Below are positions 8,132 to 39,687 of a stretch of DNA of 64,000 bases, piece after piece (within the stretch, counting starts at the first letter, position 1; every line of letters begins with the position of its first letter). Made by a program: the position numbers and the translations under genes. The stretch lies in NCBI GenBank assembly GCA_000004985.1, contig GG738869.1, one strand, 5' to 3'. A model generated the notes under the pieces. That model worked only from the letters and a program-made list of their open reading frames with translations. It searched no databases and was not told where the DNA came from. Origin of the DNA: Naegleria gruberi. Taxonomy: Eukaryota.

Positions 8132-9535
8132 ATGTCATCACAACTTCTCTACTCGATGTATTGCATTTTGGAGGGCAACTTTCCAATGGATAAACAACAT
8201 ATTCAGGACTTCAACCAAAGAAAATCACCCGATTGGATGAATCTTTCTAAACCGTTAATTAGCAAGACCAATATTTGGCATCAGGCCTCAAGTTTTCATC
8301 AATTACAAATTAAATCAACACTCTGTGGATCAACGTGCACCGAATTAATTTCAGTGCTGGATTTTGAGGATACTTCATGTTGTTCTCTCTTTTTAATATT
8401 CGGAGGAAGATCTTCCGAAATCAGGGAAGGTACTTGCATGGTAAATGATGAAAAACAATTGTATTTGATAGAGATGGTTGATAATGAATTTTCCACATGT
8501 TTGAGCTATGTCTATGATGAAAATGTGTTGAATGAAAAACAAATTCCACAGGCACGATACGGCCATTCTAGTGTCTTTGATAAAGATAGAAAGTTAATGT
8601 ATGTCTTTGGTGGGATGGCTGGAGGGAAGTGTCATAATGATTTGGCAATTTTTGATGTAGTGACAAGTTTGTGGACAATTGTTAATTTTGCAAATGTTGG
8701 ATGCTTGATTCTTCCACAAGAAAGATATGGACATAATTGTGCCATTTACAAAAATTGGATGTTTGTTTGTGGAGGAAGGGATAGCTCAGGAAATATTTTA
8801 GGAGGAATTCAAGCTATGGATTTGGATCGTTGTTTATGGATGAATATTCAAGTGGAATCATTGAGTGGAAGAAGTTTCTTTACTATGGACGTGATTGAGA
8901 GAAGAGATGATAAAATTGAGATGATCATTGCTGGAGGAATTAGAAAAGATCTCAACGAAAAACCACTACAAAGACTTACCATCACTGTTGGGAATGAAAG
9001 ATCTATACACTGCTCAGTTAATCCAATAGAAAATCAAGAACTGACTTGGGATAAGTACGGACATTGCTCTGTATTCAAAAATCAAACCTTGCTATTGGTA
9101 GGAGGTCAGAATCAAGATCACTCTCTAGATTGTAATAGCTTGGAATTTAGTATTGAGAGTGAAACCTTCTCCTCATTCTCATACTTTCTACAGCCATCTA
9201 CACATTGCAGTTTGTCGTTCCTGAACATTTCGCAAGATCTTGATGTCAATCAGAATGATGGATTCTATTTTGCTTCATTACTTTATGACAGCACTTTGAA
9301 TTGCTATGTTGTTGGGGGAAATTCGATAGCTACTTATAGAACTACACCATCAATAGATGTTTCAGAAAACGTTATCAGTGATACGTGGGTAAAGATTGTC
9401 AGCTTTTTGAATTACGATGACTTGAAGAAATTATGTCTAGTTTCCAAACGATTCTACACAATATTTACTGCAGATGTGATTTGGAAGCCAATTCTGTTTA
9501 AATTCTTTGCAGAAAAATTGATAATACCCGTATAA
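8132..9535 (+). CDS. kelch-repeat beta-propeller protein with a C-terminal F-box-like motif
   Basis: Repeated kelch-type blades such as ARYGHSSVF...MYVFGG and ERYGHNCAIY...MFVCGG. C-terminal WVKIVSFLNYDDLKKLCLVSKRFYTIF resembles an F-box. The gene may continue into the 9607 ORF through a candidate 32-nt intron at 9530-9561. Confidence 0.55.
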   Translation: MSSQLLYSMYCILEGNFPMDKQHIQDFNQRKSPDWMNLSKPLISKTNIWHQASSFHQLQIKSTLCGSTCTELISVLDFEDTSCCSLFLIFGGRSSEIREGTCMVNDEKQLYLIEMVDNEFSTCLSYVYDENVLNEKQIPQARYGHSSVFDKDRKLMYVFGGMAGGKCHNDLAIFDVVTSLWTIVNFANVGCLILPQERYGHNCAIYKNWMFVCGGRDSSGNILGGIQAMDLDRCLWMNIQVESLSGRSFFTMDVIERRDDKIEMIIAGGIRKDLNEKPLQRLTITVGNERSIHCSVNPIENQELTWDKYGHCSVFKNQTLLLVGGQNQDHSLDCNSLEFSIESETFSSFSYFLQPSTHCSLSFLNISQDLDVNQNDGFYFASLLYDSTLNCYVVGGNSIATYRTTPSIDVSENVISDTWVKIVSFLNYDDLKKLCLVSKRFYTIFTADVIWKPILFKFFAEKLIIPV

Positions 9536-9606
9536 TATGTGATTATAAGAAACAATTTCAGAAACTCATTCAAGACAAAATTTCTTCAATTAATGATAAT
9601 AACAAG

Positions 9607-10230
9607 TTGTCCAATAAGGTGTGGCCTTTCAAAAGGAGATCATATTACGAGAGGGAAATCAACTTTACTCCACCAAATATCACATGCCCAATAAGGACTT
9701 TCAAAATTTCAGTTGTAGGAGAACCATTTATGGTGAAAGCATTTATTTCCAAAATTACAGGTAAAGATGTGAACAAGATAACTGAGGAGGAACCAATTCA
9801 CATGGTGCAATTTTATTTCCATCACAATATCTATCACTTCTTGATGGATACTAGAACTAATGACATTCCAGAAGATCAACAGCAATCGTTCAGCCTCAAA
9901 TTAGTTTGCATTCGATTAGGAAGAGCTAATCAATCTATCGCAAATTCTCATGATGTTACCTGTCCTACTATAGTTCTAGGTCTCGAAGAAGAGCTTTACA
10001 AGTTTTCAATATTTAAAAAGAGTTACAATAGTCAATACTTTCAACATGTGCTACCATTCGCAACTAGTAAGGATTTGACTTTAATATTCAAACAAATTAC
10101 TTCAATTGGAGCATTTGAGAAGATTTCAACAGAGACTGGTTTTGGAATGTATCAGTTATTGGAATTCTTTCTTGATTGTATCAAAAATGATCCAACACAA
10201 TCTTCAACCTCTGGTTGTGAACTTAATTGA
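9607..10230 (+). CDS. hypothetical protein or possible 3' exon of the kelch/F-box gene
   Basis: 207-codon ORF with no recognisable motif. It lies in a frame reachable from the 8132 ORF by removing the 32-nt segment GTATAATATGTGATTATAAGAAACAATTTCAG. Confidence 0.3.
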   Translation: MSNKVWPFKRRSYYEREINFTPPNITCPIRTFKISVVGEPFMVKAFISKITGKDVNKITEEEPIHMVQFYFHHNIYHFLMDTRTNDIPEDQQQSFSLKLVCIRLGRANQSIANSHDVTCPTIVLGLEEELYKFSIFKKSYNSQYFQHVLPFATSKDLTLIFKQITSIGAFEKISTETGFGMYQLLEFFLDCIKNDPTQSSTSGCELN

Positions 10231-10524
10231 ATCAGAACAACAAATAGCACCAATTTCTAGGGTATAGCTATGCTTTATATGAGCCGTTAGAGAGAGACAT
10301 CACGATTGGTATGTAATAGATATCCATTGGATGAGCCAACGGAGTGTAGGATAGCTGTTGTAAGATACTTGTCCTTGTAGTTTGGTACAGTAGTTTCCTG
10401 TAATCTCAACGTTTCACTGATATTCATTTAAAAACACCAAAGATATTGAGCGCTGCAAATTCATTTAAGAAAAATTCACTTCAACAATATTACTTGAAGG
10501 ACTTTCCAGTAGAATATTAAGAAA

Positions 10525-11091
10525 ATGGGTTTGAAATTAAGTATTGATGCAGTTGAGGAAATGTTGATTCCTCCACCAGGAATGCGTATCACTCCAGTTC
10601 TTTTCACTGCCTTATTCTGTGGAGCATTCCTAGTATTGAAATTGATCATTCAGGACATTATTCTATTTGTAATGAAGAGAAGAAGCAAATATTTAGAGGT
10701 TGAGGAAGGGGAAGGATCATCAAACGATGCAGCATTACCAATGAGTACATTCGCACTCGTTCAGAAAATGCAACAAGATGACAAGAATTCCATTTTCACC
10801 TTTCTTATTGTTTTGATTCCATACTTGATCTACTCTCAATCCAGTTACTTTAATTACACCTACTCATCTATTGATAAGCAAGTTTATTGGAGTTATACAT
10901 GCATTGCCAATAGCATTTTTGGATGTCTTTTCATTTGCATCTTTACAATTTTAAGAGTCGTTCATTCAATTATTCTCAAAGTTGCTCCAAAATTGAATAT
11001 TGGTTTTTGGCTTGCAAATCATGTCCTATCCATTCTCTTTATTTTGTATGCAATCAGTCTTGCCTTTACCTATCATTACACATTCATGTAA
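10525..11091 (+). CDS. small multi-pass membrane protein (hypothetical)
   Basis: 188-aa ORF with ATG in an A-rich context and several hydrophobic segments. No homology recognised. Confidence 0.3.
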   Translation: MGLKLSIDAVEEMLIPPPGMRITPVLFTALFCGAFLVLKLIIQDIILFVMKRRSKYLEVEEGEGSSNDAALPMSTFALVQKMQQDDKNSIFTFLIVLIPYLIYSQSSYFNYTYSSIDKQVYWSYTCIANSIFGCLFICIFTILRVVHSIILKVAPKLNIGFWLANHVLSILFILYAISLAFTYHYTFM

Positions 11092-11544
11092 ATTTCACAT
11101 GCAACACGTTCAATGAAAGATGTGAAATTGTTCAACACAAAATAAATTTTTAATTTCCACCTCAAACCATAATTAATAATCTGCAATTCTAGAACATTGC
11201 GAGCTTGATATTGACAAGCAAGTATCCCTTCCAGAATAAATCAGTGATGCCTTAGCATTCTCATAAGCAAACAATGTCTTTCGCCTTTTACTAAAGACAT
11301 CCGTGTGAGTGTGTAATCATGGGCTTCACGAATTTTTCTGCCACTTTCTCGAGTGGACAATCTTAATAGAAAACAAGCATTACTATTATATTCAACATTA
11401 GAATGAGAATTTTGATTATGTTCCTTCATCGCAACTCCTCTAAATAATGTATTGTAAAGTAATATTATCGGATTTCCCTTCGAAAAACCATTTTGGGAAG
11501 ATTTAAATGACCTATCACAAGAAGAATCCAAGCTCTTTTTAAAA

Positions 11545-12285
11545 ATGTCTCAACACCACCAATGCAACACCTACACTGAAGCTCTTGATCAGATTCATCT
11601 GCAATCCCTCGAATATTATCAAGAAGTTGTCGATCAACAAGGAGGTTGGGAGAATTACAAAGTCACACCAGAACAAGCTCGATACTACATCAATAAGAAG
11701 AAGCATACTTATCATATTTGGATGGGTGAGATGAAGAATGTTCATTTGGGAGAATCTGTTGTGAAGGATTTGAGAGATTTCATCAAGTATTTGGATCATG
11801 AGGAGGTGAGATTATTGTGGGATGAAGAATTGGTCAAGAGTCAAACTATTCACGAAACAATTGCAAAAAATTGTAAAGAAAGTTGTAAGCATGATGATTT
11901 GAAAGTTTTTTATAGAGAGTTTAGTTCTGGAAGTAAGGCCATTTCGAATCGTGAATTTGTAGTTTCTAGAAATATTTATCAAGATCCCAAATTGGAAAAT
12001 GTGATGTGGTTGTGTACTCATACACCAATGGACTTTCCAGATTATGAACACAAGAATGCACCAAAGAATTCATCATGTGTAAGAGGAAAGGTCATGCTGA
12101 CTTCATGGAGATTTGAAAAGTTACCATCCACTATTGAAGGAAAATCATGTTTTAACATTTCTATAATGACACATTCAGAACCTGGAGGTTGGGTAACTGC
12201 TTCTTTGTTTAATAATAGTGCAGGTGATAGACCAGCAGCAACAGTTTCGAGATTGGTTAAATATTTACAAACAACCAAACAATAA
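11545..12285 (+). CDS. START / Bet v1-like lipid-binding domain protein (tentative)
   Basis: 246-aa ORF. Its C-terminal half (FYREFSSGSKAISNREFVVSRNIY...WLCTHTPMDFP...GWVTASLFNNSAG) resembles StAR-related lipid-transfer domains. Confidence 0.4.
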   Translation: MSQHHQCNTYTEALDQIHLQSLEYYQEVVDQQGGWENYKVTPEQARYYINKKKHTYHIWMGEMKNVHLGESVVKDLRDFIKYLDHEEVRLLWDEELVKSQTIHETIAKNCKESCKHDDLKVFYREFSSGSKAISNREFVVSRNIYQDPKLENVMWLCTHTPMDFPDYEHKNAPKNSSCVRGKVMLTSWRFEKLPSTIEGKSCFNISIMTHSEPGGWVTASLFNNSAGDRPAATVSRLVKYLQTTKQ

Positions 12286-12342
12286 ATAGCTAAAATATGT
12301 TTATTAAGGCGAAGTAAGGAATGATAAATTCATTTGGTGTAA

Positions 12343-12400
12343 TCGGGCGTGGTATAGTGGTAGCATTCCAGACTGTCACTCTGGCGACCCGGGTTCAATT
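12343..12400 (+). pseudogene. truncated tRNA-Asp(GTC) gene. The 5' 58 nt are present (acceptor 5' strand, D-arm, anticodon arm, variable loop, T-stem 5' half and T-loop) and end abruptly.
   Basis: The sequence is TCGGGCGTGGTATAGTGGTAGCATTCCAGACTGTCACTCTGGCGACCCGGGTTCAATT. Anticodon stem CCAGA/TCTGG, loop CTGTCAC with GTC anticodon, close to canonical eukaryotic tRNA-Asp. After TTCAATT the expected CCCGG plus 3' acceptor strand is replaced by unrelated AT-rich sequence. Confidence 0.6.
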
Positions 12401-12999
12401 TTATGTAGTTTTAGGTTTTGGAAATTTTAAATGAAAATTTATGTTCCAGCCTTTGTGGTCAATAAATACTAATCGTATTTAATTATGAATTAAGAGTTGC
12501 TCCAGAGGATCATGAAATGTTATATCATGATTAAATCCAATGGAAATGTTTGAATTCTTCATTCATAGAAGATGAAAAATGTGTTTAGGTGGTATTGTTG
12601 TTCTATTAATTAATAAAAATTGAAATTTAAGGTACCAATCTGCATGTTCACAAATCCCCCATTCACAAACCATGGCTGGAAAGGAATGCAGCAATCATCT
12701 ATGAACGAGGAAACCTACAGCGAAGCATGTTTCCAGTTCGATATCATGCTCAAGATATGTGACTACAGAGTCTTCATCTTGGTTAACCTCAAAGGTCAGA
12801 TTGACTCAAAAAAGTCGAGTTTATGTATTCCTACAGAAAAGATCCTGTAGAAGTACAGTCAATGGTTTTATCAATCTTGCATCCTCAATGATGTTATATC
12901 GGTTGTGAAAGTGAGAAATGTTGTGAGGAAAAGTTATGGTTAAAAAATTGAGAAAAATTAGAAGACATATTCAAGAAAATATTTGAATGAGTTGGAGAA

Positions 13000-13112
13000 A
13001 CACAAGGTCGTTTTTTAGTTGAGAATTTACAAATTTTGGTTGTTTAATTTGTAAATTGGAGAATTACTCTGTTGGAAGAAAATGATAAATAACTAAAAAC
13101 GACCTTGTGTGA
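13000..13112. repeat. 21-bp near-perfect inverted repeat (AACACAAGGTCGTTTTTTAGTT / AACTAAAAACGACCTTGTGTG) flanking a spacer of about 70 bp, forming a hairpin
   Basis: Read directly from the sequence. The arms at 13000-13020 and 13091-13112 are reverse complements with one T-length difference. Confidence 0.6.
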
Positions 13113-13161
13113 TTATTGATCTATTCCCATATGAAAATCAAGTTTGTTTCCCAAACATGAA

Positions 13162-13242
13162 GCAGGGGTTCCCGAGTGGTCAAAGGGGGTAGACTCAAGT
13201 TCTACTGCGCAAGCTTCGTGGGTTCAAATCCCACCTTCTGCA
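13162..13242 (+). tRNA. tRNA-Leu(CAA), type II with a long variable arm
   Basis: GCAGGGGTTCCCGAGTGGTCAAAGGGGGTAGACTCAAGTTCTACTGCGCAAGCTTCGTGGGTTCAAATCCCACCTTCTGCA. Anticodon stem GTAGA/TCTAC, loop CTCAAGT, T-arm GTGGG-TTCAAAT-CCCAC, acceptor pairing GCAGGGG/CTTCTGC. Closely resembles eukaryotic tRNA-Leu-CAA. Confidence 0.85.
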
Positions 13243-13596
13243 GCTTTTGCTTCTTTCTCCCTCAATATTTTTGGTAATACCACCAGTTTCCTATTTTTAT
13301 TGTGCGTATGACGTCTAGTTTCTATGGTAAAAGTTTGATTCAATTCCGTCAAGGCTCTATGAAGATAATCAATAAAGATAACACTGACCTCAAATATTCC
13401 AGTAAAAATACCTTTAAAAATTTCAAACAAACCAAAGATTGAGAAACAGCCGCTCATAGTTATTCTCTGAATGAAATGCCTTCTAGGAGCTACAGATCCA
13501 TATTGTTACAGCGGAATAAGGTTTTTGTGAATGACAACATGGAGAACATTTTGGAAATGAAAAGTTTAAAATATTAATTTGCTTTTCAAGTTCTAT

Positions 13597-14430
13597 TTAT
13601 TTCCACAGATTTTTCAATGGAAAATTAAATTCTTTCGATTTTTCTATAAGTGAATGGATGATTGACTTGTCAATTGAATCATTTTTGATGAGAACTTGGA
13701 GTGGATCTACCCTTTCAAATAAGGATATAAAATACAACAAATAAATTCCATTTTCTATTGATAGTAACTTATCTGAATATAATTTGATGAAAGAGTCCAT
13801 AATTGGATAGGATCTGTTCAATGTGTATACAAGTTGTGTTTTTTTGAACAATTGGAAATAATCTGGTAAGACTTTACACAATCTTTCCAATAGTGGGATT
13901 GTAAAATTGTTGGAAAGCAATAATTGGTCAAAATATCTTGGGACAGCAATCAATAAACACACTATAGTTCTGTGGTTTGTTTGAATTTTGTAAGCACCAA
14001 TCCATTTTAAATGATTTTCAAAGTAGGTCATATAAATTGACAGTTCCTTCTCCCGACATGCAAGTTCTGTATTCAATTCAAACCACCATGCACTCATCAA
14101 TATTTTGATTCTGTGATAGTGAAACTTTTTCATTAGTACTTCTTTTTCATTTTGATTTTTTGGGATAGTCTGAGATAGAATAATCAATTGTTGGCAATTT
14201 TCTTTTGGAAGTGGTATTTTGTTCCTTCTCACTCTTGACAATAAAACAAATTTAGGATTATTTGATTCGGAGATCATTGATGTGAAGGCATTCAGTAAAT
14301 CATTGGTAGTGATTAATTGACAAAATTGAGGTTCATTCTTCAAAAGTGTATACAGTTCGGAAAAAGGCAAGAATTTCAATATTAAAGATAGTATTTCCGT
14401 GGGTAAGCTAGTTACATAATAAATACACAT
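13597..14430 (-). CDS. F-box-like domain protein (hypothetical)
   Basis: 277-aa ORF starting at ATG. The N-terminus VTSLPTEILSLILKFLPFSELYTLL matches the F-box consensus LP.EIL..IL..L. The rest is Leu-rich. Confidence 0.5.
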   Translation of the reverse strand: MCIYYVTSLPTEILSLILKFLPFSELYTLLKNEPQFCQLITTNDLLNAFTSMISESNNPKFVLLSRVRRNKIPLPKENCQQLIILSQTIPKNQNEKEVLMKKFHYHRIKILMSAWWFELNTELACREKELSIYMTYFENHLKWIGAYKIQTNHRTIVCLLIAVPRYFDQLLLSNNFTIPLLERLCKVLPDYFQLFKKTQLVYTLNRSYPIMDSFIKLYSDKLLSIENGIYLLYFISLFERVDPLQVLIKNDSIDKSIIHSLIEKSKEFNFPLKNLWK

Positions 14431-14502
14431 TTTTTAATGTTGCGTAAATCCTCCCAAAAGATTGCACTTTGGTGTTTAATATCTTTGAAACTTGTTGCTG
14501 GT

Positions 14503-14513
14503 AAAAATTAAAA
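14503..14513 (-). terminator. RNA polymerase III T-run terminator just 3' of the 5S gene
   Basis: The minus strand reads ...GGTGCTGTAGTC followed by TTTTAATTTTT. Confidence 0.5.
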
Positions 14514-14631
14514 GACTACAGCACCACAGGTTCCCAAGTTGTCTCCAACCTCAGTACTGATGTGGCTCGACGATGCTTAACTTCTCAAATCGGACGGGAT
14601 GAGGTGCATTCATCGTGATATGGCCGTAGCC
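14514..14631 (-). rRNA. 5S ribosomal RNA gene, about 118 nt
   Basis: The minus strand reads GGCTACGGCCATATCACGATGAATGCACCTCATCCCGTCCGATTTGAGAAGTTAAGCATCGTCGAGCCACATCAGTACTGAGGTTGGAGACAACTTGGGAACCTGTGGTGCTGTAGTC. Helix I pairs GGCUACGGC with GCUGUAGUC. Conserved 5S blocks CGGCCATA, TCCCGTCCGAT, AGTTAAGC, AGTACT and TGGGAA..GGTGCTGTAG are present. No ORF crosses it. Confidence 0.85.
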
Positions 14632-14883
14632 GTCTACTTCATTAAAATCACTCTTTTATTCCTTCCTCAACTTTAAGTATTGCTTAACCATCATCCTTGT
14701 TAAAACTCCTTCTTATTCTCCTCCTGTCAGCTTCATCTTGCAAATGCACGTTATCCAAATTATCAAATCTCAAGAAATCGCTTCAATAAATTACTACAAC
14801 ATGAACGTTGAAGCCTTTTTGAGCGTTTTTAAAAAGAATATTCAAAACACTTCACGAATAAGCTCAAAAAAAAAATATCAAAG

Positions 14884-15471
14884 ATGCCAGCCTACAAGAA
14901 AGCACAACAATACGATTCCGACGACTCTGAAGAACAACAAGAAGAACAAGAAGTCATTGAAGAAGCTGAAGAAGAAATTCAAGACGTTAACGATGCTTCT
15001 GAAGATGAAAATGCTGATTCTGATGATGATATGCCAAAGAATAAGCCATTGAAGAAGCACGGTTTCAATGGTGGTAACCGTGGAGGTTTTGGTGGTGATA
15101 GAGAAGGTGGCCGTGGTGGCTTCAGAGGTGGAAGAGGTGGCCGTGGTGGTCGTGGAGGATTCAACAGAGATGGTCCACGTGGTATTGAAAAGCAAGATAA
15201 GATGGGAGGTGGTTTCAGAGGTGGCCGTGGTGGTTTTGGTGGCGATAGAGGTGGCCGTGGTGGTCGTGGTGGCTTCAGAGGAGGTCGTGGTGGTAGTTTT
15301 GGTGGTGATAGAGATGGAGGAAGAGGTGGTTTCAGAGGAGGTAGAGGTGGTGGCCGTGGTGGTGGCAGAGGTGGTTTTGGTGGTGATAGAGGTGGCCGTG
15401 GTGGTGGTCGTGGAGGATTCAGAGGAGGTAGAGGTGGTCGTGGTGGTAGAGGTGGTTTCAACAGAGATTAA
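14884..15471 (+). CDS. glycine/arginine-rich (RGG/GAR) protein with an acidic Ser/Asp/Glu-rich N-terminus, nucleolar-type
   Basis: 195-aa ORF. The N-terminal 60 aa are D/E/S-rich, followed by repeats of GGRGGFRGGRGGRGG. Overlapping alternate-frame ORFs are artefacts of the GGN repeats. Confidence 0.6.
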   Translation: MPAYKKAQQYDSDDSEEQQEEQEVIEEAEEEIQDVNDASEDENADSDDDMPKNKPLKKHGFNGGNRGGFGGDREGGRGGFRGGRGGRGGRGGFNRDGPRGIEKQDKMGGGFRGGRGGFGGDRGGRGGRGGFRGGRGGSFGGDRDGGRGGFRGGRGGGRGGGRGGFGGDRGGRGGGRGGFRGGRGGRGGRGGFNRD

Positions 15472-16111: not shown

Positions 16112-17950
16112 TCAACAGAATTCTGGATGTCTGACATAGTCCATTGGTTCGGCTCCACAACGTTCATTCATTTTGGCATAAGGTTTAATTGTGGAAAAGT
16201 TGTCCAATTTCCAATACCAAGGTCCAGCTACTTGACAGTAAGGTAGATTATCATTGTTGACATTACACTTTTCAGGTCTCCAATTCAAATCCCATATTCC
16301 CAATTGGTATATATCCTTTGGGGTAAACTCACCACTTTCTAATTGGTTAGTCAAATTTCCAAATATTCCAGCAGCCTTTAACAAATTCATATACATTACT
16401 GAACATACCATCATTGGCTTGCCGTCATAAAGCCATCCATCTTTTTCAGGTAATGTAAGAGCATAATTGATTGTAATGTTCAATTTGTTCAAATAATCGA
16501 ATACACACATAACTTCCGTACAATTAGCATTAATTCCATAATAATGTTTGAGTCTTTGATTCATTCCTTTAAGGAAGAGCAAATTAATTGCAGAACCAGC
16601 ATACCAATTGTTAAATAGAACAAAAGTGGCACCAATCATATCTCCAGAGAGTGGGTGTGGATAATTATCTTCTTCAGTATCTATCCATGCATAGGCAATA
16701 TTTACAAAACCATATTCATTTCCTTCCAAAGTTTTAAACAACTCTACAGCTGCAGATTCATTATAGAGTTTTCTATATTCTGGAGCTAATCTTGCAATAA
16801 TAATGGTAGAATCAACTTGAGAAGCAGTGTACCATGCTGGCCATGGAGTTCTTCTGACTCCTTCCTCAGTCGACTCGACAACGTATTTAACACCATCAAT
16901 CTTTAAAATAGACGCAATATGTCCAGTTCTGGCTCCAGTTCCGTACATTAATAAACAATCCAATCCACTCAATTGAAGTTGCATGACAACATCACCACTT
17001 TCTAGCTCATAATCTTCCAAGTAAATTTGTTTGATAGGTCTTTCATTGAATTCAAAACCCATATCTTCTTTCAAGAAACTCATCTTATCCTTCTCAAAAT
17101 ACATGCCAGCAAGTAATTTTCCAGCATTGAAAGCATCAATAATGGTTTGGAAAATGGCATCTTTGAAATAAAACATTCTCAACCCATTTTGTAAAACGTC
17201 TTCCCATTCTCCGTCATCTTTCAAGTGTTCCAAAATCAGTTCATGTTTTCCGTGTGTGAATAGAACCTTGACAAAGTAATTTTCTCTTGTTGTAATAAAA
17301 TACCAATCATAACAGAGGTAAGATACTGGTCCACTTGTCTCAAATTCCAAAGTGACGGATTTCTTTGCAGAATCAATTTTGGTAATTCTGGCAGATGTGT
17401 TTTGGAAACAAGGAGCATAGGACCAACTAATTGGCTTGCCATCAATTTTAGCATTTCCAATAAATGATGGAACCCAATTTCTTCTATGATCTGGAGGCAT
17501 TGGATCTGAGCTACTTTTTCCAAATTGTGTCTTGATTGACTTGTTATTTTCTTTTGACAATTGCCACAATGCCTTCCAACTCATTCTCTTCATAGTTCTA
17601 GCAATTGATCTCGTTCTCACAAAATCACCCTTCCTTTCCACAAGCATGGTCTCCGTCTTGTGATAGAGTGATTCACTCTCAGTATAATATCCATTACTTG
17701 GTGATGCATAAATATTTCCTCTCTCGTGATGTTCTTTATGATGATGAATATTATTGTTACTATTCAATAATTGTTGGGTAAACTTATTAAAAGTTTCCTT
17801 GTTAGAAGTTACATAGGTGAGTGAAGCCTCTTCATGATGATGATCAAACATCGGAATGGTTAATTTTGCATTTACAATTACAATTGATAGAATCAATAGT
17901 ACAATATTTATCCAATTATAAATAATAAAATTCTTCCCCCGCAACATCAT
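16112..17950 (-). CDS. type II membrane or secreted protein with a His-rich region (hypothetical)
   Basis: 612-aa ORF. N-terminal hydrophobic segment NWINIVLLILSIVIVNA, then His-rich stretches and a large Cys-containing luminal domain. No confident domain match. Confidence 0.45.
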   Translation of the reverse strand: MMLRGKNFIIYNWINIVLLILSIVIVNAKLTIPMFDHHHEEASLTYVTSNKETFNKFTQQLLNSNNNIHHHKEHHERGNIYASPSNGYYTESESLYHKTETMLVERKGDFVRTRSIARTMKRMSWKALWQLSKENNKSIKTQFGKSSSDPMPPDHRRNWVPSFIGNAKIDGKPISWSYAPCFQNTSARITKIDSAKKSVTLEFETSGPVSYLCYDWYFITTRENYFVKVLFTHGKHELILEHLKDDGEWEDVLQNGLRMFYFKDAIFQTIIDAFNAGKLLAGMYFEKDKMSFLKEDMGFEFNERPIKQIYLEDYELESGDVVMQLQLSGLDCLLMYGTGARTGHIASILKIDGVKYVVESTEEGVRRTPWPAWYTASQVDSTIIIARLAPEYRKLYNESAAVELFKTLEGNEYGFVNIAYAWIDTEEDNYPHPLSGDMIGATFVLFNNWYAGSAINLLFLKGMNQRLKHYYGINANCTEVMCVFDYLNKLNITINYALTLPEKDGWLYDGKPMMVCSVMYMNLLKAAGIFGNLTNQLESGEFTPKDIYQLGIWDLNWRPEKCNVNNDNLPYCQVAGPWYWKLDNFSTIKPYAKMNERCGAEPMDYVRHPEFC

Positions 17951-19437: not shown

Positions 19438-19563
19438 GGTCTGGAAGTGTGTAATTTTATTGGTCATTTCCATTTGGATACTTGTTTGGTTTTCTTGTTA
19501 TCTTCTTATAAGTGGTTGCTGAATGAATCCTTTTTCAAGAAACAACAACACAATAGCAATTTC

Positions 19564-22500
19564 ATGGGCAAGATTAATGATGGTGAATGTGTTAATGCTT
19601 TCAATTATGTTAGAGATTTGGAACGTGCAAGAGAACAGTTTGATTCATCGTATTCGGAAAGAACAACTTCTATTGGTGATGATGAAATTCAACATGTTCT
19701 TGATGGACATATGGTCAATTGGATTTTATTACTCCAAAGAGTGTTAAAGATGAGACCAGAATTGCAGAGGCAGATAAAGGAGGATGGAGGTGCTGATTGG
19801 TTGGTTCGTGCAGTGTCTTTAAAAACACATCACCCAGTAATTCATAATATGGCAAGTGCTAAGAAGTTTCTCCAATTAATGAAGAAATTTACAACTTTAC
19901 AAGGTCAACCGTATGCAGAAATGAATTTTGATGAAAAATTTGAAATGCTCAAGGTTGTGACAAGAACATTTCTTGTTACAATGAATGGTTTAGAGCAAGT
20001 CCACAAATGGTTTTTGGATGGTAATCAGGATTTATCTGTGAATCAACTAGAGAATGATAGAGATCACTTTCGTATAAGAATAGTTGAAATTTGCATTAGA
20101 AATTCAACAAGCTTACAAGGACTTGCAGGAGACTTATACTCAGACAATAGTGATCCAAGAGCAATTGTCAAACTCAGAAGTTCACCGAAAGGAAAATACT
20201 CAAAGAGTCGTTATAGATTATATTTTGGTGTTAACACAACCTTGACTGTATTATTTTCCTTTCCAAGAATGGGATTGACATCTCAATTATTTCTTTCAGA
20301 AAATTCAGATTTGGAAAGTTTAAAGGATTTGAAAACTGTTGCAGGAAATTATTGGGGAGAAGAAACAGTTCTCAAGATTAAGCAAGATTTTTGTAATAGC
20401 ATCAATAATGGTAAAAAGCCAACAGTTTCAAAGCAAGATTTTTCAAAATGCAAACATTTGGAAAGAATTTCACAAGAATTTAGAGCTGCTCGAGTTTTGA
20501 AAAGTTATCAAGATTCTCCAATTACAATTGCCGGTTATTCATTTCATCAATTATGTCAAAATACCAGTGGAATGCATTCGTATAAGTATACTTATTATTG
20601 TGGAGATTTGGCTGATGAATTGCCATTGGGAGTGGAAGATGTGAAGGAGTTTTTTATTCCTAGTCATCTCAATCCAGATTTGTACAAACCAGAAAATCAA
20701 TTGAAATTAACAGTTCGTTTATCGCTCTTAAATACTCCAATATCTCCTACGATTAATATTTCAGAATATCAAGTTATTGAAGATGTTGGTCTTTTCACAG
20801 ATGGTTGTGGTTTCATTTCTCCTGATTTAGCAAGAGAAATTTATAGAAAAATTAAACAGGCAGAATCTAGAGAGAAAGTTCACGTATTTGAGAATGCACA
20901 ATACATGGTTGATGTACAGATGATTTATCAAGATTCTGATCCAGTTGAGGATGATATGGATGATAATGTTCCTTCAGCATTTCAGATTCGTTTTAGAGGA
21001 GCAAAAGGCATGCTCCTACAAAATCCAAATGTGAAAGGAATTGTATTAAGAGAATCTATGGTTAAATTCAACGTAGATTTAGATGAAGATCTCGATGAGG
21101 AAGACGAAAGTCTTTCGAATATCCATGTAGTCGGTTATTCAGAACCATCTAATTTTGCATTCGCCAACTCAACAATTTTGTACATGATGAGTGGATGTGT
21201 TGATGGAGGTGAGAAATTTGAGGGAATAATTATGAATATGTGGAAGGATTATGTTAATGACATTTTAAAAACCTATTCTAATGAAGATACTTCCCAATTG
21301 ATGAAGAAATATTTCAAAGAAGGCGATTTTCATGCCTTAAACATTTTCGGATTGACCAAAGATGTTGCACTCGCTTTCCTTGCAGGACCATTCAGAACTC
21401 AATTGTTGAATCTTAAACTCCCTATTCAAAATGCTCGGAGAGTTTACGGAGTTTGTGATCCACTCGAAGTGTTAGAACCAGATGAAGTTTTTGTTAGAAT
21501 TAGAATGGAAGATGGCACTTTGAAAACCTTGGAAGGAACTATTGCCATCACTAAAGAGCCATGTCTTCATAGAGGTGATTTACGTTTGCTGAAAGCTAAG
21601 AAAATAGAGAGTTTAGAATATCTTTCAGAAGTAATTGTTTTTCCTATTAAGGGAGAAAAAAGACCTATTCCTAACATGATTACAGGAAGTGATTTGGATG
21701 GTGACAAATATCTTGTCATTTGGGATGAACCTCTTGTTTCATCTTTCGTCCAACAATTCGAACCTGGAAACTTTGATGAAGAAATTGAAGGAGAAAAACG
21801 TAATTTCGAACCAGATGTTTTTAAGGACTGGATAGGATTGAGACATTCCTATGTAGATTCGTATGGATATGAATGGAGTAAAGGTGAGAATTGGAAAACC
21901 ATGCAAAGACTTTCAGATATTGTAAATATGGCTGTCGATGCACCTAAAAAGGGGAAAACATTCAAGGCAGGTGCAATGGAGAAGGATATTGTTAGAAACT
22001 TTCCGAAATATCCTCATTTCCATAATTCAAAGACAAAGGAAGCTGTTAGAGTGAGTACTTCAGTTGTTGGGAAAATGTATGATTTTGCAATTGATAGAGT
22101 TACTGAGCGTTTTAAATTTCAGCCAGTTACTGACAAGCGTCAAACATCAACTGACGACAAGGAATATTTATTCTTGGATAATTTATACCAAGTATTGCGA
22201 AGGAATAAGGATATTTCAGTCAATCAGTTTTTGAACTTTATTTGGAAACATTTTTCAAACATTTTATTGAGAAGCACTACAATTCAATTTGCTTCTGAGT
22301 TTTTAGATTCGTTTTGGAGATTCTTATGTATGTTGACAATACGAAAAGAGAAAACTATTATATTGTGTTGTCTTAACACAACTGTTGATAAGGTTAATAA
22401 CAGTTCTATGAATGCAATTATTAGCGAAATGACAAAGAGCGATAATTTAGTACTAATGGTTCAAGGAATATCCGAAACTAAACTCAAATTCAAAGAAGAT

Positions 22501-24555
22501 TTGCAAAATGACAAGATACATGACTCCTCTGCATGTTCTTTATTCAAATTTTCCAACTCGAATGTTGAATTTATTCATTTCCTTTTTTATGAAATATTCT
22601 TTGATGCAGCTTCAAGAATCCAAATTGATCTAGGGTACAATTTGCTTACCAATTATACCCTATCTCAAACCCTATTTGAAAATATTGTAGAACCATCGAC
22701 TTTGAATCCAGTTCTCTTTAAAAAACCAAAAACTATCTTTGAAATAATTTACAAAGCTTGCAATGGCAAAGACTCAGATAGAAAGAAGCATGCATTGTAC
22801 ATTGTTGGACTTTTATTCAAGAATGGTATAATTTTACCTAGAAACTATGATTTGGCTATCAAATGCTTTAAACTGGCACTTTCAAAAGAGAACAATATCC
22901 GAATTGGATTTATACCATATTTGTATAATAGTGAAAAACGACCTGTAATGAAAGAATTGAAGATTCTGGCAAAGGCAGGATATGCTGAAGCACAATACAA
23001 CTTGGGAAGATTAAGCTATTTTGATGGCGATCAATGGTCTGCTTTGGAATGGTTGAAAAAAGCTGCTTTTCAATGTGTTCTTAATATTGAAAACAGAGGA
23101 TTGGATAAGAAGAACACTCTTTACTTTTTATCAAATCTCTACAGGGATGGTACTATTGTTGAGTGGAATAATGATAGATATCTTCAATTATTGGAAGAAT
23201 CTGCTAAATTAGGATCTATTGATGCAATGTACAAGATTGGAAGAAGGATGGAGTTGACCAAACAGTATTCATTTGCTTGTTTTTGGTATGAGAGAGCAGC
23301 CTATGAGGGAATATTAGAAAATTATTTGCAAGGTTATGGAATGAAAAACTCTTGTCGATTCAGCTTGGAAATTGATGAATATGGAATTGATTCAATGAAT
23401 AGATTGCCACCTCTTCCATTGCAAAATGATCTACAAGTTGAAATTCAACTTGATATTTCAATAGAAAGTCCTCTCTTGAAGAAAAATATGCTATTTGTGC
23501 AGAGTTCAAATCCAGTTTTCCAAACTTTTTGTAATGATGGAACAATTATTCCACCAAACGAAATTGAAGAATTTACCAAGATTCTCCCAAGTTCTAATAT
23601 ATTACAAAAGAAATATGAAAGGAAATATGAAAGCATCCATGACTCAGCAAAGAGAACTATGGAAAAAGCAGAAAAAATGCTGAAATTGGCTAACCAAACT
23701 ATTGCTCATATAGATAGAATTTTAAACAAGGGAAAGAGTTCAGATTCGAAAGAATCTCCTCTTGAAAATGAGAGTAAAGAAGAAGTAGAAGAAATATCTA
23801 CTGAACAAATATCAACTGAACAAGAAGATACAAAAGAATCTATTATTCCACACACAAAATGGAAACTGATTTATAGAGGAAGTAAGGATGGATACGAATC
23901 TAATGATTTCCATAGAAAGTGTGATGATAAAGGTTCCACTTTCATCATAGTCAAGACTAAAGAGGACGAAATATTTGGAGGATATACAACCCAAACTTGG
24001 AAAATTCCCCAAGCAAATATCTTTGGACACACACAACGAAACGATGAAAATGCATTCTTATTCATTCGTTCCAAGAGTCGCAAATATTTTAAACTTCCAA
24101 TCACAAATCAACCAAGTATTGATTGTACTCACGCAAGATTAATTGACTTTCTTGATTTTACCATACCAAATAATTGTGATATAATTCCAGGACATACTAA
24201 TTTCGGAATGAATTATCAACTTCCAAAATGGTCTAAGGGAAATGGATTCAGTTTTAGTGAATCTCTTGATAATAGAAGAAGTTTTTATGTGGAAGAAATT
24301 GAAGTTTATTCATTAATAGATTCTGAAGATGAAAATAGTCCACTCATGTCTGGATCAATCAATCTTTCTCAGATAAGAACAGATGGTCCTATGTTTAATT
24401 GGGATGATTATTTGAGCTACGTTAGAGCACGAAATAGTGATCCTTATGGTACAAGAGCATACACAGAAAGTGTAAGACAAGCAAGAATTTCAAGTGATGA
24501 AGGAATTGAAAGATTGAAAGACAAGTTGCGTCTAATGGGAGTTTTCAAGGAATAG
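19564..24555 (+). CDS. cellular RNA-dependent RNA polymerase (RDR/QDE-1/EGO-1 family) fused to C-terminal Sel1-like repeats and a TLDc domain
   Basis: Uninterrupted 1702-codon ORF (19447-24555); the first ATG is at 19564. The catalytic core has AFQIRFRGAKGMLLQNP and the cellular-RdRP signature GSDLDGDKYLVIWDE (DLDGD, about 21690). Residues around 22900-23300 carry Sel1-type repeats (AEAQYNLGRLSYF..., AMYKIGRRMEL...). The C-terminus (about 23850-24300) has WKLIYRGSKDGYESNDFHRKCDDKGSTFIIVKTKEDEIFGGYTTQTWK, typical of TLDc. Confidence 0.8.
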   Translation: MGKINDGECVNAFNYVRDLERAREQFDSSYSERTTSIGDDEIQHVLDGHMVNWILLLQRVLKMRPELQRQIKEDGGADWLVRAVSLKTHHPVIHNMASAKKFLQLMKKFTTLQGQPYAEMNFDEKFEMLKVVTRTFLVTMNGLEQVHKWFLDGNQDLSVNQLENDRDHFRIRIVEICIRNSTSLQGLAGDLYSDNSDPRAIVKLRSSPKGKYSKSRYRLYFGVNTTLTVLFSFPRMGLTSQLFLSENSDLESLKDLKTVAGNYWGEETVLKIKQDFCNSINNGKKPTVSKQDFSKCKHLERISQEFRAARVLKSYQDSPITIAGYSFHQLCQNTSGMHSYKYTYYCGDLADELPLGVEDVKEFFIPSHLNPDLYKPENQLKLTVRLSLLNTPISPTINISEYQVIEDVGLFTDGCGFISPDLAREIYRKIKQAESREKVHVFENAQYMVDVQMIYQDSDPVEDDMDDNVPSAFQIRFRGAKGMLLQNPNVKGIVLRESMVKFNVDLDEDLDEEDESLSNIHVVGYSEPSNFAFANSTILYMMSGCVDGGEKFEGIIMNMWKDYVNDILKTYSNEDTSQLMKKYFKEGDFHALNIFGLTKDVALAFLAGPFRTQLLNLKLPIQNARRVYGVCDPLEVLEPDEVFVRIRMEDGTLKTLEGTIAITKEPCLHRGDLRLLKAKKIESLEYLSEVIVFPIKGEKRPIPNMITGSDLDGDKYLVIWDEPLVSSFVQQFEPGNFDEEIEGEKRNFEPDVFKDWIGLRHSYVDSYGYEWSKGENWKTMQRLSDIVNMAVDAPKKGKTFKAGAMEKDIVRNFPKYPHFHNSKTKEAVRVSTSVVGKMYDFAIDRVTERFKFQPVTDKRQTSTDDKEYLFLDNLYQVLRRNKDISVNQFLNFIWKHFSNILLRSTTIQFASEFLDSFWRFLCMLTIRKEKTIILCCLNTTVDKVNNSSMNAIISEMTKSDNLVLMVQGISETKLKFKEDLQNDKIHDSSACSLFKFSNSNVEFIHFLFYEIFFDAASRIQIDLGYNLLTNYTLSQTLFENIVEPSTLNPVLFKKPKTIFEIIYKACNGKDSDRKKHALYIVGLLFKNGIILPRNYDLAIKCFKLALSKENNIRIGFIPYLYNSEKRPVMKELKILAKAGYAEAQYNLGRLSYFDGDQWSALEWLKKAAFQCVLNIENRGLDKKNTLYFLSNLYRDGTIVEWNNDRYLQLLEESAKLGSIDAMYKIGRRMELTKQYSFACFWYERAAYEGILENYLQGYGMKNSCRFSLEIDEYGIDSMNRLPPLPLQNDLQVEIQLDISIESPLLKKNMLFVQSSNPVFQTFCNDGTIIPPNEIEEFTKILPSSNILQKKYERKYESIHDSAKRTMEKAEKMLKLANQTIAHIDRILNKGKSSDSKESPLENESKEEVEEISTEQISTEQEDTKESIIPHTKWKLIYRGSKDGYESNDFHRKCDDKGSTFIIVKTKEDEIFGGYTTQTWKIPQANIFGHTQRNDENAFLFIRSKSRKYFKLPITNQPSIDCTHARLIDFLDFTIPNNCDIIPGHTNFGMNYQLPKWSKGNGFSFSESLDNRRSFYVEEIEVYSLIDSEDENSPLMSGSINLSQIRTDGPMFNWDDYLSYVRARNSDPYGTRAYTESVRQARISSDEGIERLKDKLRLMGVFKE

Positions 24556-38163: not shown

Positions 38164-39687
38164 ATGATACAACAATCTGCCAGCCAAATGTTATTCGAAA
38201 CAACCAACATGCATTCAAAGAATAATGCACAATTTCAACAAGCTTCCTATTCGAAAGTTCCCCCTTCCACTGCTGTACTATTAAACAATGAGACCCACAG
38301 AACTAATCGCGACAACAGTCCAGTACAGAAAGATATCAGCGACATGTCTGGGTCAACTGGACCATTTGTTTCGAATAACATTTCTAAAGAAAAATCACAA
38401 CAACCACCCATGATGTTACCAAACTTGAGAGATTTACTGAATGAATCAGCACCGCCTTCAGCACATGTTGCAGAAACCTTGTATCCACGTGTCCAGTACC
38501 AACAATCACAGCCACAGAATGGTGGCAACTTTAACTCCAGAAACTTGCATTCATACTATTCGAATACAAACAACAACATGTCTTCCAATCCCATGCATCA
38601 ACAACAATATCCAAATTTGGGTTTTGATAAAATCCCAGCTCACATTCAATCCAACTCTTCCCAACAAAATCCATTATTCGAAACATCACATGCAAGGTAT
38701 TCACCACCACATCCACAACAACATGTATACTCTACTCAACCACCACATACCATACAACCATCACCTCTTCAACAACAACATGTTTCAAGATTATCACCTC
38801 CTCATGATCCACATCCCCTCCAACCAATAACTCATCAACAACATTTAAATCAATCGTCTCCTCCACCACAACAACAACCAATGACACAACAACAACATAT
38901 AAATCCACAAGTGATTGCGAATAGAACAATTCAAGATTTGGAGAGAGAACTCGATTATCAGTCGAGGTTTATTGTAGAGTTGGAGAGGCAGAATAGTGAA
39001 TTGAGAAGGGAGTTGATGCATGTGAGACAACAACAACAGCAACAACATGTACCTTCACAGACAAGTTCTAATGGATCATCTATAGTACCAGCTGGTACTG
39101 CTCGAATGATGCCTATTCGAACAAAGAATGATCCATTCGAAACTGCCAACAAGAAGAGAAATTTTGCAGATGTTCAACCTACTACTGTAGGAGGATCTGC
39201 AGTAACGACCTATCTTACATCGAGTGTAAATGATTCAAAGAAGAGAAAGACAAGCGCATCATCACCAAGTGCGTCATCTGCATCAAATATCTTAGATTCG
39301 AATAATAATAAGGAAATTTCTATTGTTGATGAATCAGTGGACAAGTTAAATACTGCAAACATGCACAAGTATATTGTTAAATGGAAGGGCGAAACCTATG
39401 TTCTAGTCAGCATTTTCAAGAATAGAACCCAAATTCTCAATTATTACGTTCCTCTCTATCAGAGTCAGAATCCAGATAAGGTTTGCAAGATTGTGTTGAG
39501 TAATGAAGATTACAAACAACTTTCTAATGAAAACCCTGACACTGTTGAAAAGAAGAAGCATGCATGGAGAGTTTCTGTGTTTAGTTTGGATTTTTACAAT
39601 TTTGTAAAGAATTTTCAAAAGAAAAATCATCAACAGAAAGCTTCATCCTTCATTCCATTTGATGCCACAACACAAATAAATAAGTAA
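38164..39687 (+). CDS. Gln/Pro/His-rich putative nuclear regulator with a coiled-coil segment
   Basis: 507-aa ORF. Long Q/P/H-rich low-complexity N-terminal half, coiled coil IQDLERELDYQSRFIVELERQNSELRREL, C-terminal globular region (KYIVKWKGETYVLVSIF...). Upstream lies 1.5 kb without genes. Confidence 0.5.
   Translation: MIQQSASQMLFETTNMHSKNNAQFQQASYSKVPPSTAVLLNNETHRTNRDNSPVQKDISDMSGSTGPFVSNNISKEKSQQPPMMLPNLRDLLNESAPPSAHVAETLYPRVQYQQSQPQNGGNFNSRNLHSYYSNTNNNMSSNPMHQQQYPNLGFDKIPAHIQSNSSQQNPLFETSHARYSPPHPQQHVYSTQPPHTIQPSPLQQQHVSRLSPPHDPHPLQPITHQQHLNQSSPPPQQQPMTQQQHINPQVIANRTIQDLERELDYQSRFIVELERQNSELRRELMHVRQQQQQQHVPSQTSSNGSSIVPAGTARMMPIRTKNDPFETANKKRNFADVQPTTVGGSAVTTYLTSSVNDSKKRKTSASSPSASSASNILDSNNNKEISIVDESVDKLNTANMHKYIVKWKGETYVLVSIFKNRTQILNYYVPLYQSQNPDKVCKIVLSNEDYKQLSNENPDTVEKKKHAWRVSVFSLDFYNFVKNFQKKNHQQKASSFIPFDATTQINK

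Follow-up and report, generated by a model that had tools for sequence, protein, structure and literature searches.

In the current analysis we have examined a block of small-RNA genes in a stretch of 64,000 bp of the contig GG738869.1 of Naegleria gruberi (assembly GCA_000004985.1), referred to here as the window. The block comprises, in order, a U5 spliceosomal small nuclear RNA (snRNA) gene (+), a gene encoding a START-domain protein (+), a broken tRNA-Asp gene (+), a U3 small nucleolar RNA (snoRNA) gene (-), a palindromic spacer, a tRNA-Leu gene (+), a gene for an F-box-like protein (-) and a 5S ribosomal RNA (rRNA) gene (-). The locus is likely to be ordinary nuclear DNA of N. gruberi, with housekeeping small-RNA genes occupying short spacers between protein-coding genes. 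This assessment is a joint one, and includes the independence of the genes from each other, the dispersed nature of the 5S gene, the derivation of the broken tRNA-Asp by a deletion and the accumulation of the genes in a permissive neighbourhood. The original prediction for this region had listed a tRNA-Asp fragment, a hairpin, a tRNA-Leu gene and a 5S gene. All four have been found where they had been placed; the U3 gene, which lies inside the interval then described, the U5 gene, 1 kb to the left of it, and the two interleaved protein genes had been overlooked.

The 5S rRNA gene (14513-14631, -) aligns with the whole of the Rfam model RF00001 (positions 1-120 of 120) with a score of 105.4 bits against a gathering threshold of 38 (E-value 4e-22). 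The gene ends in GTAGTCT and is directly followed by TTTAATTTTT, which contains immediate T4 and T5 runs. An A/T box, GGAATAAAAG, is situated at about -30 to -21 and a box A-like motif, GTTAAGC, at +51 to +57. A complete 5S gene with a T-run terminator on the minus strand, as had been predicted, is hence confirmed, with a covariance score well over the threshold.

The tRNA-Leu(CAA) gene (13162-13242, +), also predicted earlier, is recovered both by ARAGORN, with the anticodon caa, and by the Rfam model RF00005 (48.7 bits, gathering threshold 29). It has a complete cloverleaf with a long variable arm and is free of introns, and the CCA end is not encoded; its B box is GGTTCAAATCC and a T4 run begins 3 nt downstream. 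As judged from these features, the 5S and tRNA-Leu genes are genuine nuclear genes of the RNA polymerase III (Pol III) type, and both are followed by a T-run terminator. Of the two, 5S would be a type 1 unit, in which an internal control region is combined with an A/T box near -25 and a terminating T-run, and tRNA-Leu would be a type 2 unit, whose A and B boxes are internal and whose terminator is the T4 run.

A U3 snoRNA gene has been identified on the minus strand at 12634-12862 (RF00012, 75.5 bits against a gathering threshold of 34, E-value 1e-14, model positions 1-219). The 5' region comprising the GAC, A' and A boxes reads UUGACUGUACUUCUACAGGAUCUUUUCUGUAG and box C is UGAUGAU. The full-length score over the gathering threshold, the conserved 5' A'/A region and box C place it in the U3 family. 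In the Rfam alignment two of its boxes are variant, namely C' (UGAAGA against UGAUGA) and D (CAGA against CUGA, within GCAGAU); each is one base off and retains the G-A dinucleotide. A T5 run occurs 15 nt downstream of the gene and an A/T-rich motif, GATATAAC, at about -39 to -32. An 18-mer scan of genome and viral contigs yielded candidates for a second U3 locus; they align by blastn over only 20-25 nt and are therefore regarded as chance matches.

The U5 snRNA gene (11247-11357, +) aligns with the full model RF00020 with 66.6 bits against a gathering threshold of 40. The invariant loop I is read as CGCCUUUUACUAAAG and is accompanied by an Sm-like site, AAUUUUUC, and a 3' hairpin; the score, the invariant loop I GCCUUUUAC and the Sm site together support the assignment to U5. 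The gene is identical in another haplotype of this region, represented by L035, a contig of 3571 bp from the ENA metagenome assembly ERZ929261. The roughly 50 nt that follow the U5 gene contain no T-run, and transcription by RNA polymerase II is likely for it. The U3 genes of trypanosomatids, plants and other protists examined are made by Pol III (PMC2784804), and on phylogenetic grounds only the same is plausible for the U3 gene of Naegleria. Both U3 and U5 would use external promoters. The upstream motifs common to U3, U5, 5S and tRNA-Leu are generic A/T boxes, in a set of sequences too small to judge.

These genes do not add up to the Pol III cluster that had been proposed, since the same block also holds U3, U5, the latter with no T-run nearby, and two protein genes. 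A low-threshold Rfam scan from 10.5 to 15.5 kb has revealed nothing beyond the four intact genes, and a motif scan of the spacers for box C/D snoRNAs gave no candidate between 10 and 16 kb. Exact look-ups of the open reading frames (ORFs) lying over U3, tRNA-Leu and 5S found no spurious protein model over these RNA genes in the protein collection.

The tRNA-Asp(GTC) at 12343-12402 (+) is truncated. It matches positions 1-58 of 71 of the Rfam tRNA model with 17.8 bits, against a gathering threshold of 29, and is not called by ARAGORN; relaxed settings, including introns, gave nothing, or only noise at a threshold of 80%. The 5' 58-60 nt that are retained comprise the 5' strand of the acceptor, the D arm, a perfect anticodon arm (loop CTGTCAC), the 5' strand of the T-stem and the T-loop, after which the similarity ends. 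The 3' strands of the T-stem and acceptor are absent, so that a full cloverleaf is not formed. The A box is intact, 9 of the 11 positions of the B box are kept, and the remnant is joined directly to the T4 terminator that formerly lay downstream of the gene.

The haplotype represented by L035 accounts for this structure. The contig is 97.7% identical to positions 8996-12460 of the window, and the sample from which it was assembled also gave a contig encoding an exact START paralogue of N. gruberi. At the same site L035 carries an intact tRNA-Asp(GTC) gene (L035:3363-3433), called by ARAGORN and scoring 54.4 bits with Rfam, whose first 58 nt are identical to the fragment in the window. The octamer GTTCAATT occurs twice in L035, with one copy in the T-loop and the other 20 bp further on, just 3' of the gene. 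When the 20 bp between the two copies of GTTCAATT are removed in silico, the sequence of the window is obtained through GGGTTCAATTTTA. Since an intact counterpart exists and the modelled deletion reproduces the junction, the tRNA-Asp of the window is interpreted as a recent deletion allele. Slippage during replication or microhomology-mediated end joining would have deleted the 20 bp between the 8-bp direct repeats, taking away the 3' T-stem and the acceptor strand and fusing the T-loop to the old T4 terminator of the gene.

As the presence or absence of the intact gene is polymorphic between haplotypes that are about 98% identical, the deletion appears to be very young. The fragment that had been listed earlier is thus present, and on the evidence of the L035 haplotype or strain it is a very young putative null allele and not an old relic. 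If transcribed, it could give at most a 3'-truncated RNA of about 60 nt, and the retained A box with the near-complete B box could still bind TFIIIC. The case resembles known tRNA pseudogenes formed by short repeat-mediated deletions in the loss of exactly 20 bp between 8-bp direct repeats and in the complete identity of the remaining 5' part to the intact allele; it differs from them in being still polymorphic between nearly identical haplotypes. The last 79 nt of L035 (3493-3571) diverge from the window from 12461 onward and include another GGTTCAATTTT motif; the mismatch of this tail may be due to a structural difference or to an artefact at the contig end.

A 5' portion of 60 nt that is perfectly tRNA-like and carries the A and B boxes might also be expected of one half of a split, permuted or interrupted gene that yields a functional tRNA. 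A 3' piece, sought as the exact complement with up to 2 mismatches allowed, was not found in the whole window, and a pattern tolerating G-U pairs gave 16 matches where 15.4 are expected in 64 kb, none of them nearby. Split and permuted models are excluded by the absence of such a 3' piece anywhere in the window; an interrupted gene is opposed by the ARAGORN searches with introns, and a contiguous intact gene at the same site of L035, related to the window by a simple repeat-mediated deletion of 20 bp, accounts for the difference. A functional tRNA from two pieces is hence regarded as very improbable.

The spacer of 299 bp between the divergent U3 and tRNA-Leu genes is occupied by a compound palindromic element (13000-13110, no strand assigned), identified by inverted-repeat search and folding. 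Its outer stem is formed by perfect arms of 16 bp (13000-13015 and 13095-13110) and an inner hairpin of 12 perfect base pairs (13024-13035 and 13046-13057) is nested within it. The hairpin of 21 bp described in the original prediction exists, with the qualification that pairing is perfect over 16 bp only and the longer stem, at 95%, requires one bulge. The predicted folding energies are -36.3 kcal/mol on the plus strand (z -4.35 relative to shuffled sequence) and -32.9 kcal/mol on the minus strand (z -8.84). Terminal inverted repeats of 16-21 bp in an element of about 111 bp would suit a miniature inverted-repeat transposable element (MITE) inserted between U3 and tRNA-Leu, and its removal would bring the two genes to about 190 bp from each other. 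A target-site duplication cannot be seen in the sequence, and neither the 64-kb window nor the 255 kb of loci fetched has yielded another copy; for these two reasons a transposon origin is weak and is considered unlikely. A second perfect inverted repeat, with arms of 18 bp separated by 162 nt (38186-38203 and 38366-38383), lies inside the ORF 38164-39687 and has no sequence similarity to the element at 13000-13110.

The nuclear origin of the block is indicated by its surroundings. The START-domain ORF (11545-12285, +; Pfam START, E-value 4e-8) is 100% identical to an NCBI entry named "predicted protein [Naegleria gruberi]" on a scaffold of 747,259 bp, and the ORF at 10525-11091 (+) corresponds to EFC44189.1 / NAEGRDRAFT_67825. 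The G+C content is 31-39% across the window and 33-39% in the block, similar to the remaining window, which is rich in long ORFs with eukaryotic domains such as Kelch/F-box, RNA-dependent RNA polymerase (RdRP) and SNF2. The N. gruberi protein genes, the ambient G+C content and the density of ORFs with eukaryotic domains point to nuclear DNA of N. gruberi and not to organellar DNA. An insertion of organellar DNA into the nucleus, or a contaminant, would be at odds with all of these observations as well as with the presence of U3 and U5, which are RNA classes found only in the nucleus, and of a 5S gene belonging to a nuclear multi-copy family. No evidence in favour of such an origin has been found and it is given next to no credence; the possibility of a nuclear copy of organellar DNA, raised with the original prediction, is accordingly dismissed on the grounds of the U3 and U5 classes, the nuclear protein neighbours and the ambient G+C.

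All five RNA features of the window are contained within 3385 bp of its 64,000 bp, for which random placement gives P = 3.7e-5; for the intact RNA genes alone (n=4) the clustering has P = 5.7e-4. The other 60.6 kb of the window, and 87.9 kb of loci from relatives, contain no Rfam match at the gathering level. The clustering is statistically non-random.

A chance co-location with no underlying cause could be argued from the post hoc choice of the window, from the confinement of small-RNA genes to intergenic DNA, which reduces the effective space available to them, and from the fact that the position of the cluster is not kept beside orthologous protein genes. The genome of N. gruberi is about 41 Mb in size. 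With the 279 putative 5S genes published for it (PMC3369914) the density of 5S genes is about 1 per 147 kb, and the background density of small-RNA genes is zero in 148 kb of other sequence of the Naegleria group. Together with the low probability of finding either five or four features in 3.4 kb of 64 kb, these densities make coincidence quite improbable. The clustering is most simply read as an accumulation of small-RNA genes in one permissive intergenic neighbourhood. Such genes would gather there in the manner of Pol III genes in trypanosomatids, and no functional coupling between them is part of this proposal.

The neighbourhood of the cluster has been compared with that of orthologous protein genes in related species. 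The loci of the START orthologues in N. lovaniensis and N. fowleri, and a paralogue locus (L001, L002 and L004), contain no RNA genes. The two orthologue loci have different neighbours, except for an RdRP gene a few kb away. These RdRP genes (L002 16797-19784 and L004 16829-20022) are the only trace of synteny seen; in the window, a eukaryotic RdRP domain occurs together with Sel1 repeats and a TLDc domain in an ORF of 1702 residues (19447-24555, +). An ORF of 612 residues (16112-17950, -) has orthologues in N. fowleri (68% identity), N. lovaniensis (63%) and Willaertia magna (55%), and the loci of its orthologues in Willaertia (L006) and N. lovaniensis (L007) are also devoid of RNA genes. As the orthologue loci examined lack RNA genes, the cluster is not syntenic with either the START gene or the 612-residue gene. 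No protein of N. gruberi is found among the matches of the latter and its exact sequence is absent from the protein collection, and it looks like a gene that is unannotated in the reference.

The F-box-like ORF (13597-14430, -; 277 residues) has a weak match to the Pfam F-box-like family (E-value 0.0045). Its sole homologue is a paralogue of N. gruberi encoded on another scaffold (41% identity, E-value 1e-45) and its exact sequence does not occur in the protein collection. This ORF probably represents a genuine protein gene, which the public protein set apparently lacks. The start of another ORF, of 195 residues (14884-15471, +), lies 253 bp upstream of the 5S gene. In its product, long RGG/GGF repeats resembling a nucleolar GAR domain come after an acidic N-terminus; the ORF has no Pfam match and its exact sequence is likewise absent from the protein collection. 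In the region of L035 corresponding to NAEGRDRAFT_67825 (window 10525-11091, +; L035 1536-1871) the frame is interrupted by deletions of 2 nt and 1 nt and by two deletions of 3 nt, and only a gene of 111 residues is called there. The annotated "predicted protein" NAEGRDRAFT_67825 may be a spurious gene model, or the gene may have become a pseudogene in one of the haplotypes.

The 5S genes of N. gruberi had already been catalogued in 2012, when 279 putative genes were reported on many scaffolds (PMC3369914, Table 1 and Table S1). The family is labelled "tandem" in that study (PMC3369914), whereas the spacing in its Table S1 is irregular, ranging from about 0.5 kb to hundreds of kb; judged by these coordinates, the family is dispersed, and some of its genes form loose groups locally. 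The rDNA plasmids of Naegleria carry only the 18S, 5.8S and 28S genes (PMC12482156). No second 5S gene or other rRNA has been detected by Rfam in the 64-kb window. When a 21-mer from the window 5S gene was used to scan metagenome contigs, 14 contigs were identified, each of which has exactly one 5S gene; no tRNA, U3 or U5 gene occurs in the 1-6.7 kb of any of them. Among these contigs only L012 is demonstrably N. gruberi-like. Its 5S gene is identical to that of the window at 118 of 119 positions and its flanks are unrelated, except for the motif AAGTAGA.

The location of the 5S gene outside both a tandem array and the rDNA unit, which had been claimed earlier, is therefore correct and was already known: the catalogued family, the content of the plasmids and the solitary copies on the contigs all agree with it. 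The description of the gene as single-copy is contradicted by the 279 published genes and by the L012 copy with its different flanks, and its linkage to tRNA genes does not serve as a character of the lineage, since none of the 14 other 5S contigs, of which L012 alone is N. gruberi-like, carries a tRNA. A few hundred such solitary copies are spread over the genome, and the window gene, as an ordinary member of this catalogued dispersed family, is not a distinctive single-copy marker. It shares with the family its full length, a TATA-like box upstream, the internal control region and the T-runs, and it is not linked to the extrachromosomal rDNA. No essential difference is seen, other than that it lies 1.3-1.7 kb from tRNA-Leu and U3 while the other 5S contigs examined are solitary.

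The motif AAGTAGA lies at -8 to -2 in both the N. gruberi-type 5S copies (window 14632-14639, L012 658-665) and could be an initiator-like element, or the true start of transcription could be further upstream. The 5S genes of the remaining contigs are about 70-78% identical to that of the window over 119 nt. Most of the other 5S copies also have an A/T-rich box near -30 to -20 and a T-run directly after the gene. A group of VFQM/VFQO metagenome contigs (L008-L011, L013-L017, L019 and L020), which stem from one or more organisms, contains many solitary 5S genes whose bodies are nearly identical to each other and whose flanks are wholly unrelated. Over all 119 nt they share about 76-78% identity with the N. 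gruberi copy, and the changes in helix I are paired. This pattern points to another dispersed 5S family.

The arrangement of genes around U3 has been compared with that in Euglenozoa, the group with which Naegleria is usually placed in Discoba. The minus-strand U3 gene, which starts at 12862 and ends at 12634, has upstream of it the divergent tRNA-Leu gene, starting at 13162 (299 bp away), and downstream of it the convergent tRNA-Asp site (231 bp) and the convergent U5 gene, ending at 11357 (1276 bp). The 5S gene is located 1.65 kb upstream. In trypanosomatids a divergent tRNA gene is found 93-105 bp upstream of U3, and its A and B boxes are required for U3 expression (PMC2784804). In Leishmania tarentolae U3, 10 tRNAs, U1 and 5S are contained in 2.7 kb (PMC2784804). 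In Euglena gracilis U3 and U5 converge with spacers of 160-255 bp, and U3 and tRNA-Arg converge with one of 209 bp (Charette & Gray 2009, PMC2784804); the U3-U5 linkage was reported at that time as unknown outside Euglena (PMC2784804). The tRNA genes of the Tritryps are known to occur in clusters of 2-10, in which other Pol III genes may also be present and whose synteny is weak (PMC2695483).

The Naegleria locus resembles the Pol III clusters of trypanosomatids in that U3, a tRNA, 5S and a spliceosomal snRNA gene occur within about 3 kb, with a divergent tRNA upstream of U3 and a convergent tRNA downstream, and in the little synteny between species. It differs from them in its spacers of 299 and 231 bp, compared with 71-106 bp, and in having only one intact tRNA in the reference and two interleaved protein genes; the transcription of U3 or U5 by Pol III and a dependence of U3 on the tRNA boxes are hypothetical at the Naegleria locus. 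With the U3 linkages of Euglena it has in common a U5 gene downstream of U3 and converging on it, and a tRNA that is also downstream and converging at a similar distance. The tRNA in question is tRNA-Asp and not tRNA-Arg, and is broken in the reference haplotype, and the linkage is a single instance as against the 12 recurrent variants of Euglena.

These similarities raise the possibility that the layout is a functional arrangement inherited from an ancestor of Discoba, in which the flanking tRNAs would recruit TFIIIC and TFIIIB and drive or permit transcription of U3 by Pol III, and in which the pairing of U3 with U5 would be homologous to that of Euglena. It is favoured by the divergent tRNA-Leu, the convergent tRNA-Asp, intact in L035, and the convergent U5 around U3, with 5S on the other side, orientations that are the same in Leishmania, Trypanosoma brucei and Euglena (PMC2784804). 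The T5 run 15 nt past U3 and the non-random clustering are in keeping with it. The distance of 299 bp from tRNA-Leu to U3 falls outside the spacing of 93-105 bp that is critical in trypanosomatids, and the short gene-free spacer between U3 and U5 of the Euglena type is replaced by 1276 bp that include the START gene and the tRNA-Asp site. Loss of the tRNA-Asp downstream is tolerated by the reference haplotype; in a genome with 66% A+T little weight attaches to a T5 run, and only a single locus is involved. In view of the mismatch in spacing, the protein gene between U3 and U5 and the lost downstream tRNA, the resemblance to Euglenozoa is treated as a lead and not as membership. Homology of the U3 arrangement with the U3 loci of Euglena and trypanosomatids is therefore thought improbable, though worth following.

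The interpretation of the locus as ordinary nuclear DNA, in which independent small-RNA genes have accumulated in a permissive neighbourhood, finds a precedent in the Pol III clusters with little synteny in the Tritryps (PMC2695483). Every RNA gene would in this view be an independent unit with its own predicted signals. Several observations weigh against the interpretation. A clustering with P of about 4e-5 demands a cause, and a permissive neighbourhood only names one. The orientation pattern around U3 is that of Euglenozoa and could exceed coincidence, and the palindromic element between U3 and tRNA-Leu is left unexplained. L035 matches the window only up to 58 bp past the tRNA-Asp site, short of U3. 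The count of 279 5S genes was obtained by low-stringency BLAST and includes partial matches (PMC3369914).

All the genes at the locus are ordinary and the novelty is low. The new elements are the presence of U3 and U5, the polymorphic deletion of tRNA-Asp and the Euglenozoa-like layout, all of them minor. The main value of the analysis is a correction, together with a small comparative data point: the locus has five small-RNA genes or remnants and not three, among them U3 and U5 of a heterolobosean that serves as a model. The tRNA-Asp provides a clean example of a tRNA gene apparently destroyed by a 20-bp repeat-mediated deletion that is still polymorphic between near-identical haplotypes. If the arrangement around U3 were ancestral, the last common ancestor of Heterolobosea and Euglenozoa would already have had the tRNA/TFIIIC-assisted transcription of U3 by Pol III as well as the linkage of U3 to U5, and if the layout proves general it would bear on how, in this region of the tree of eukaryotes, U3 came under the control of Pol III.

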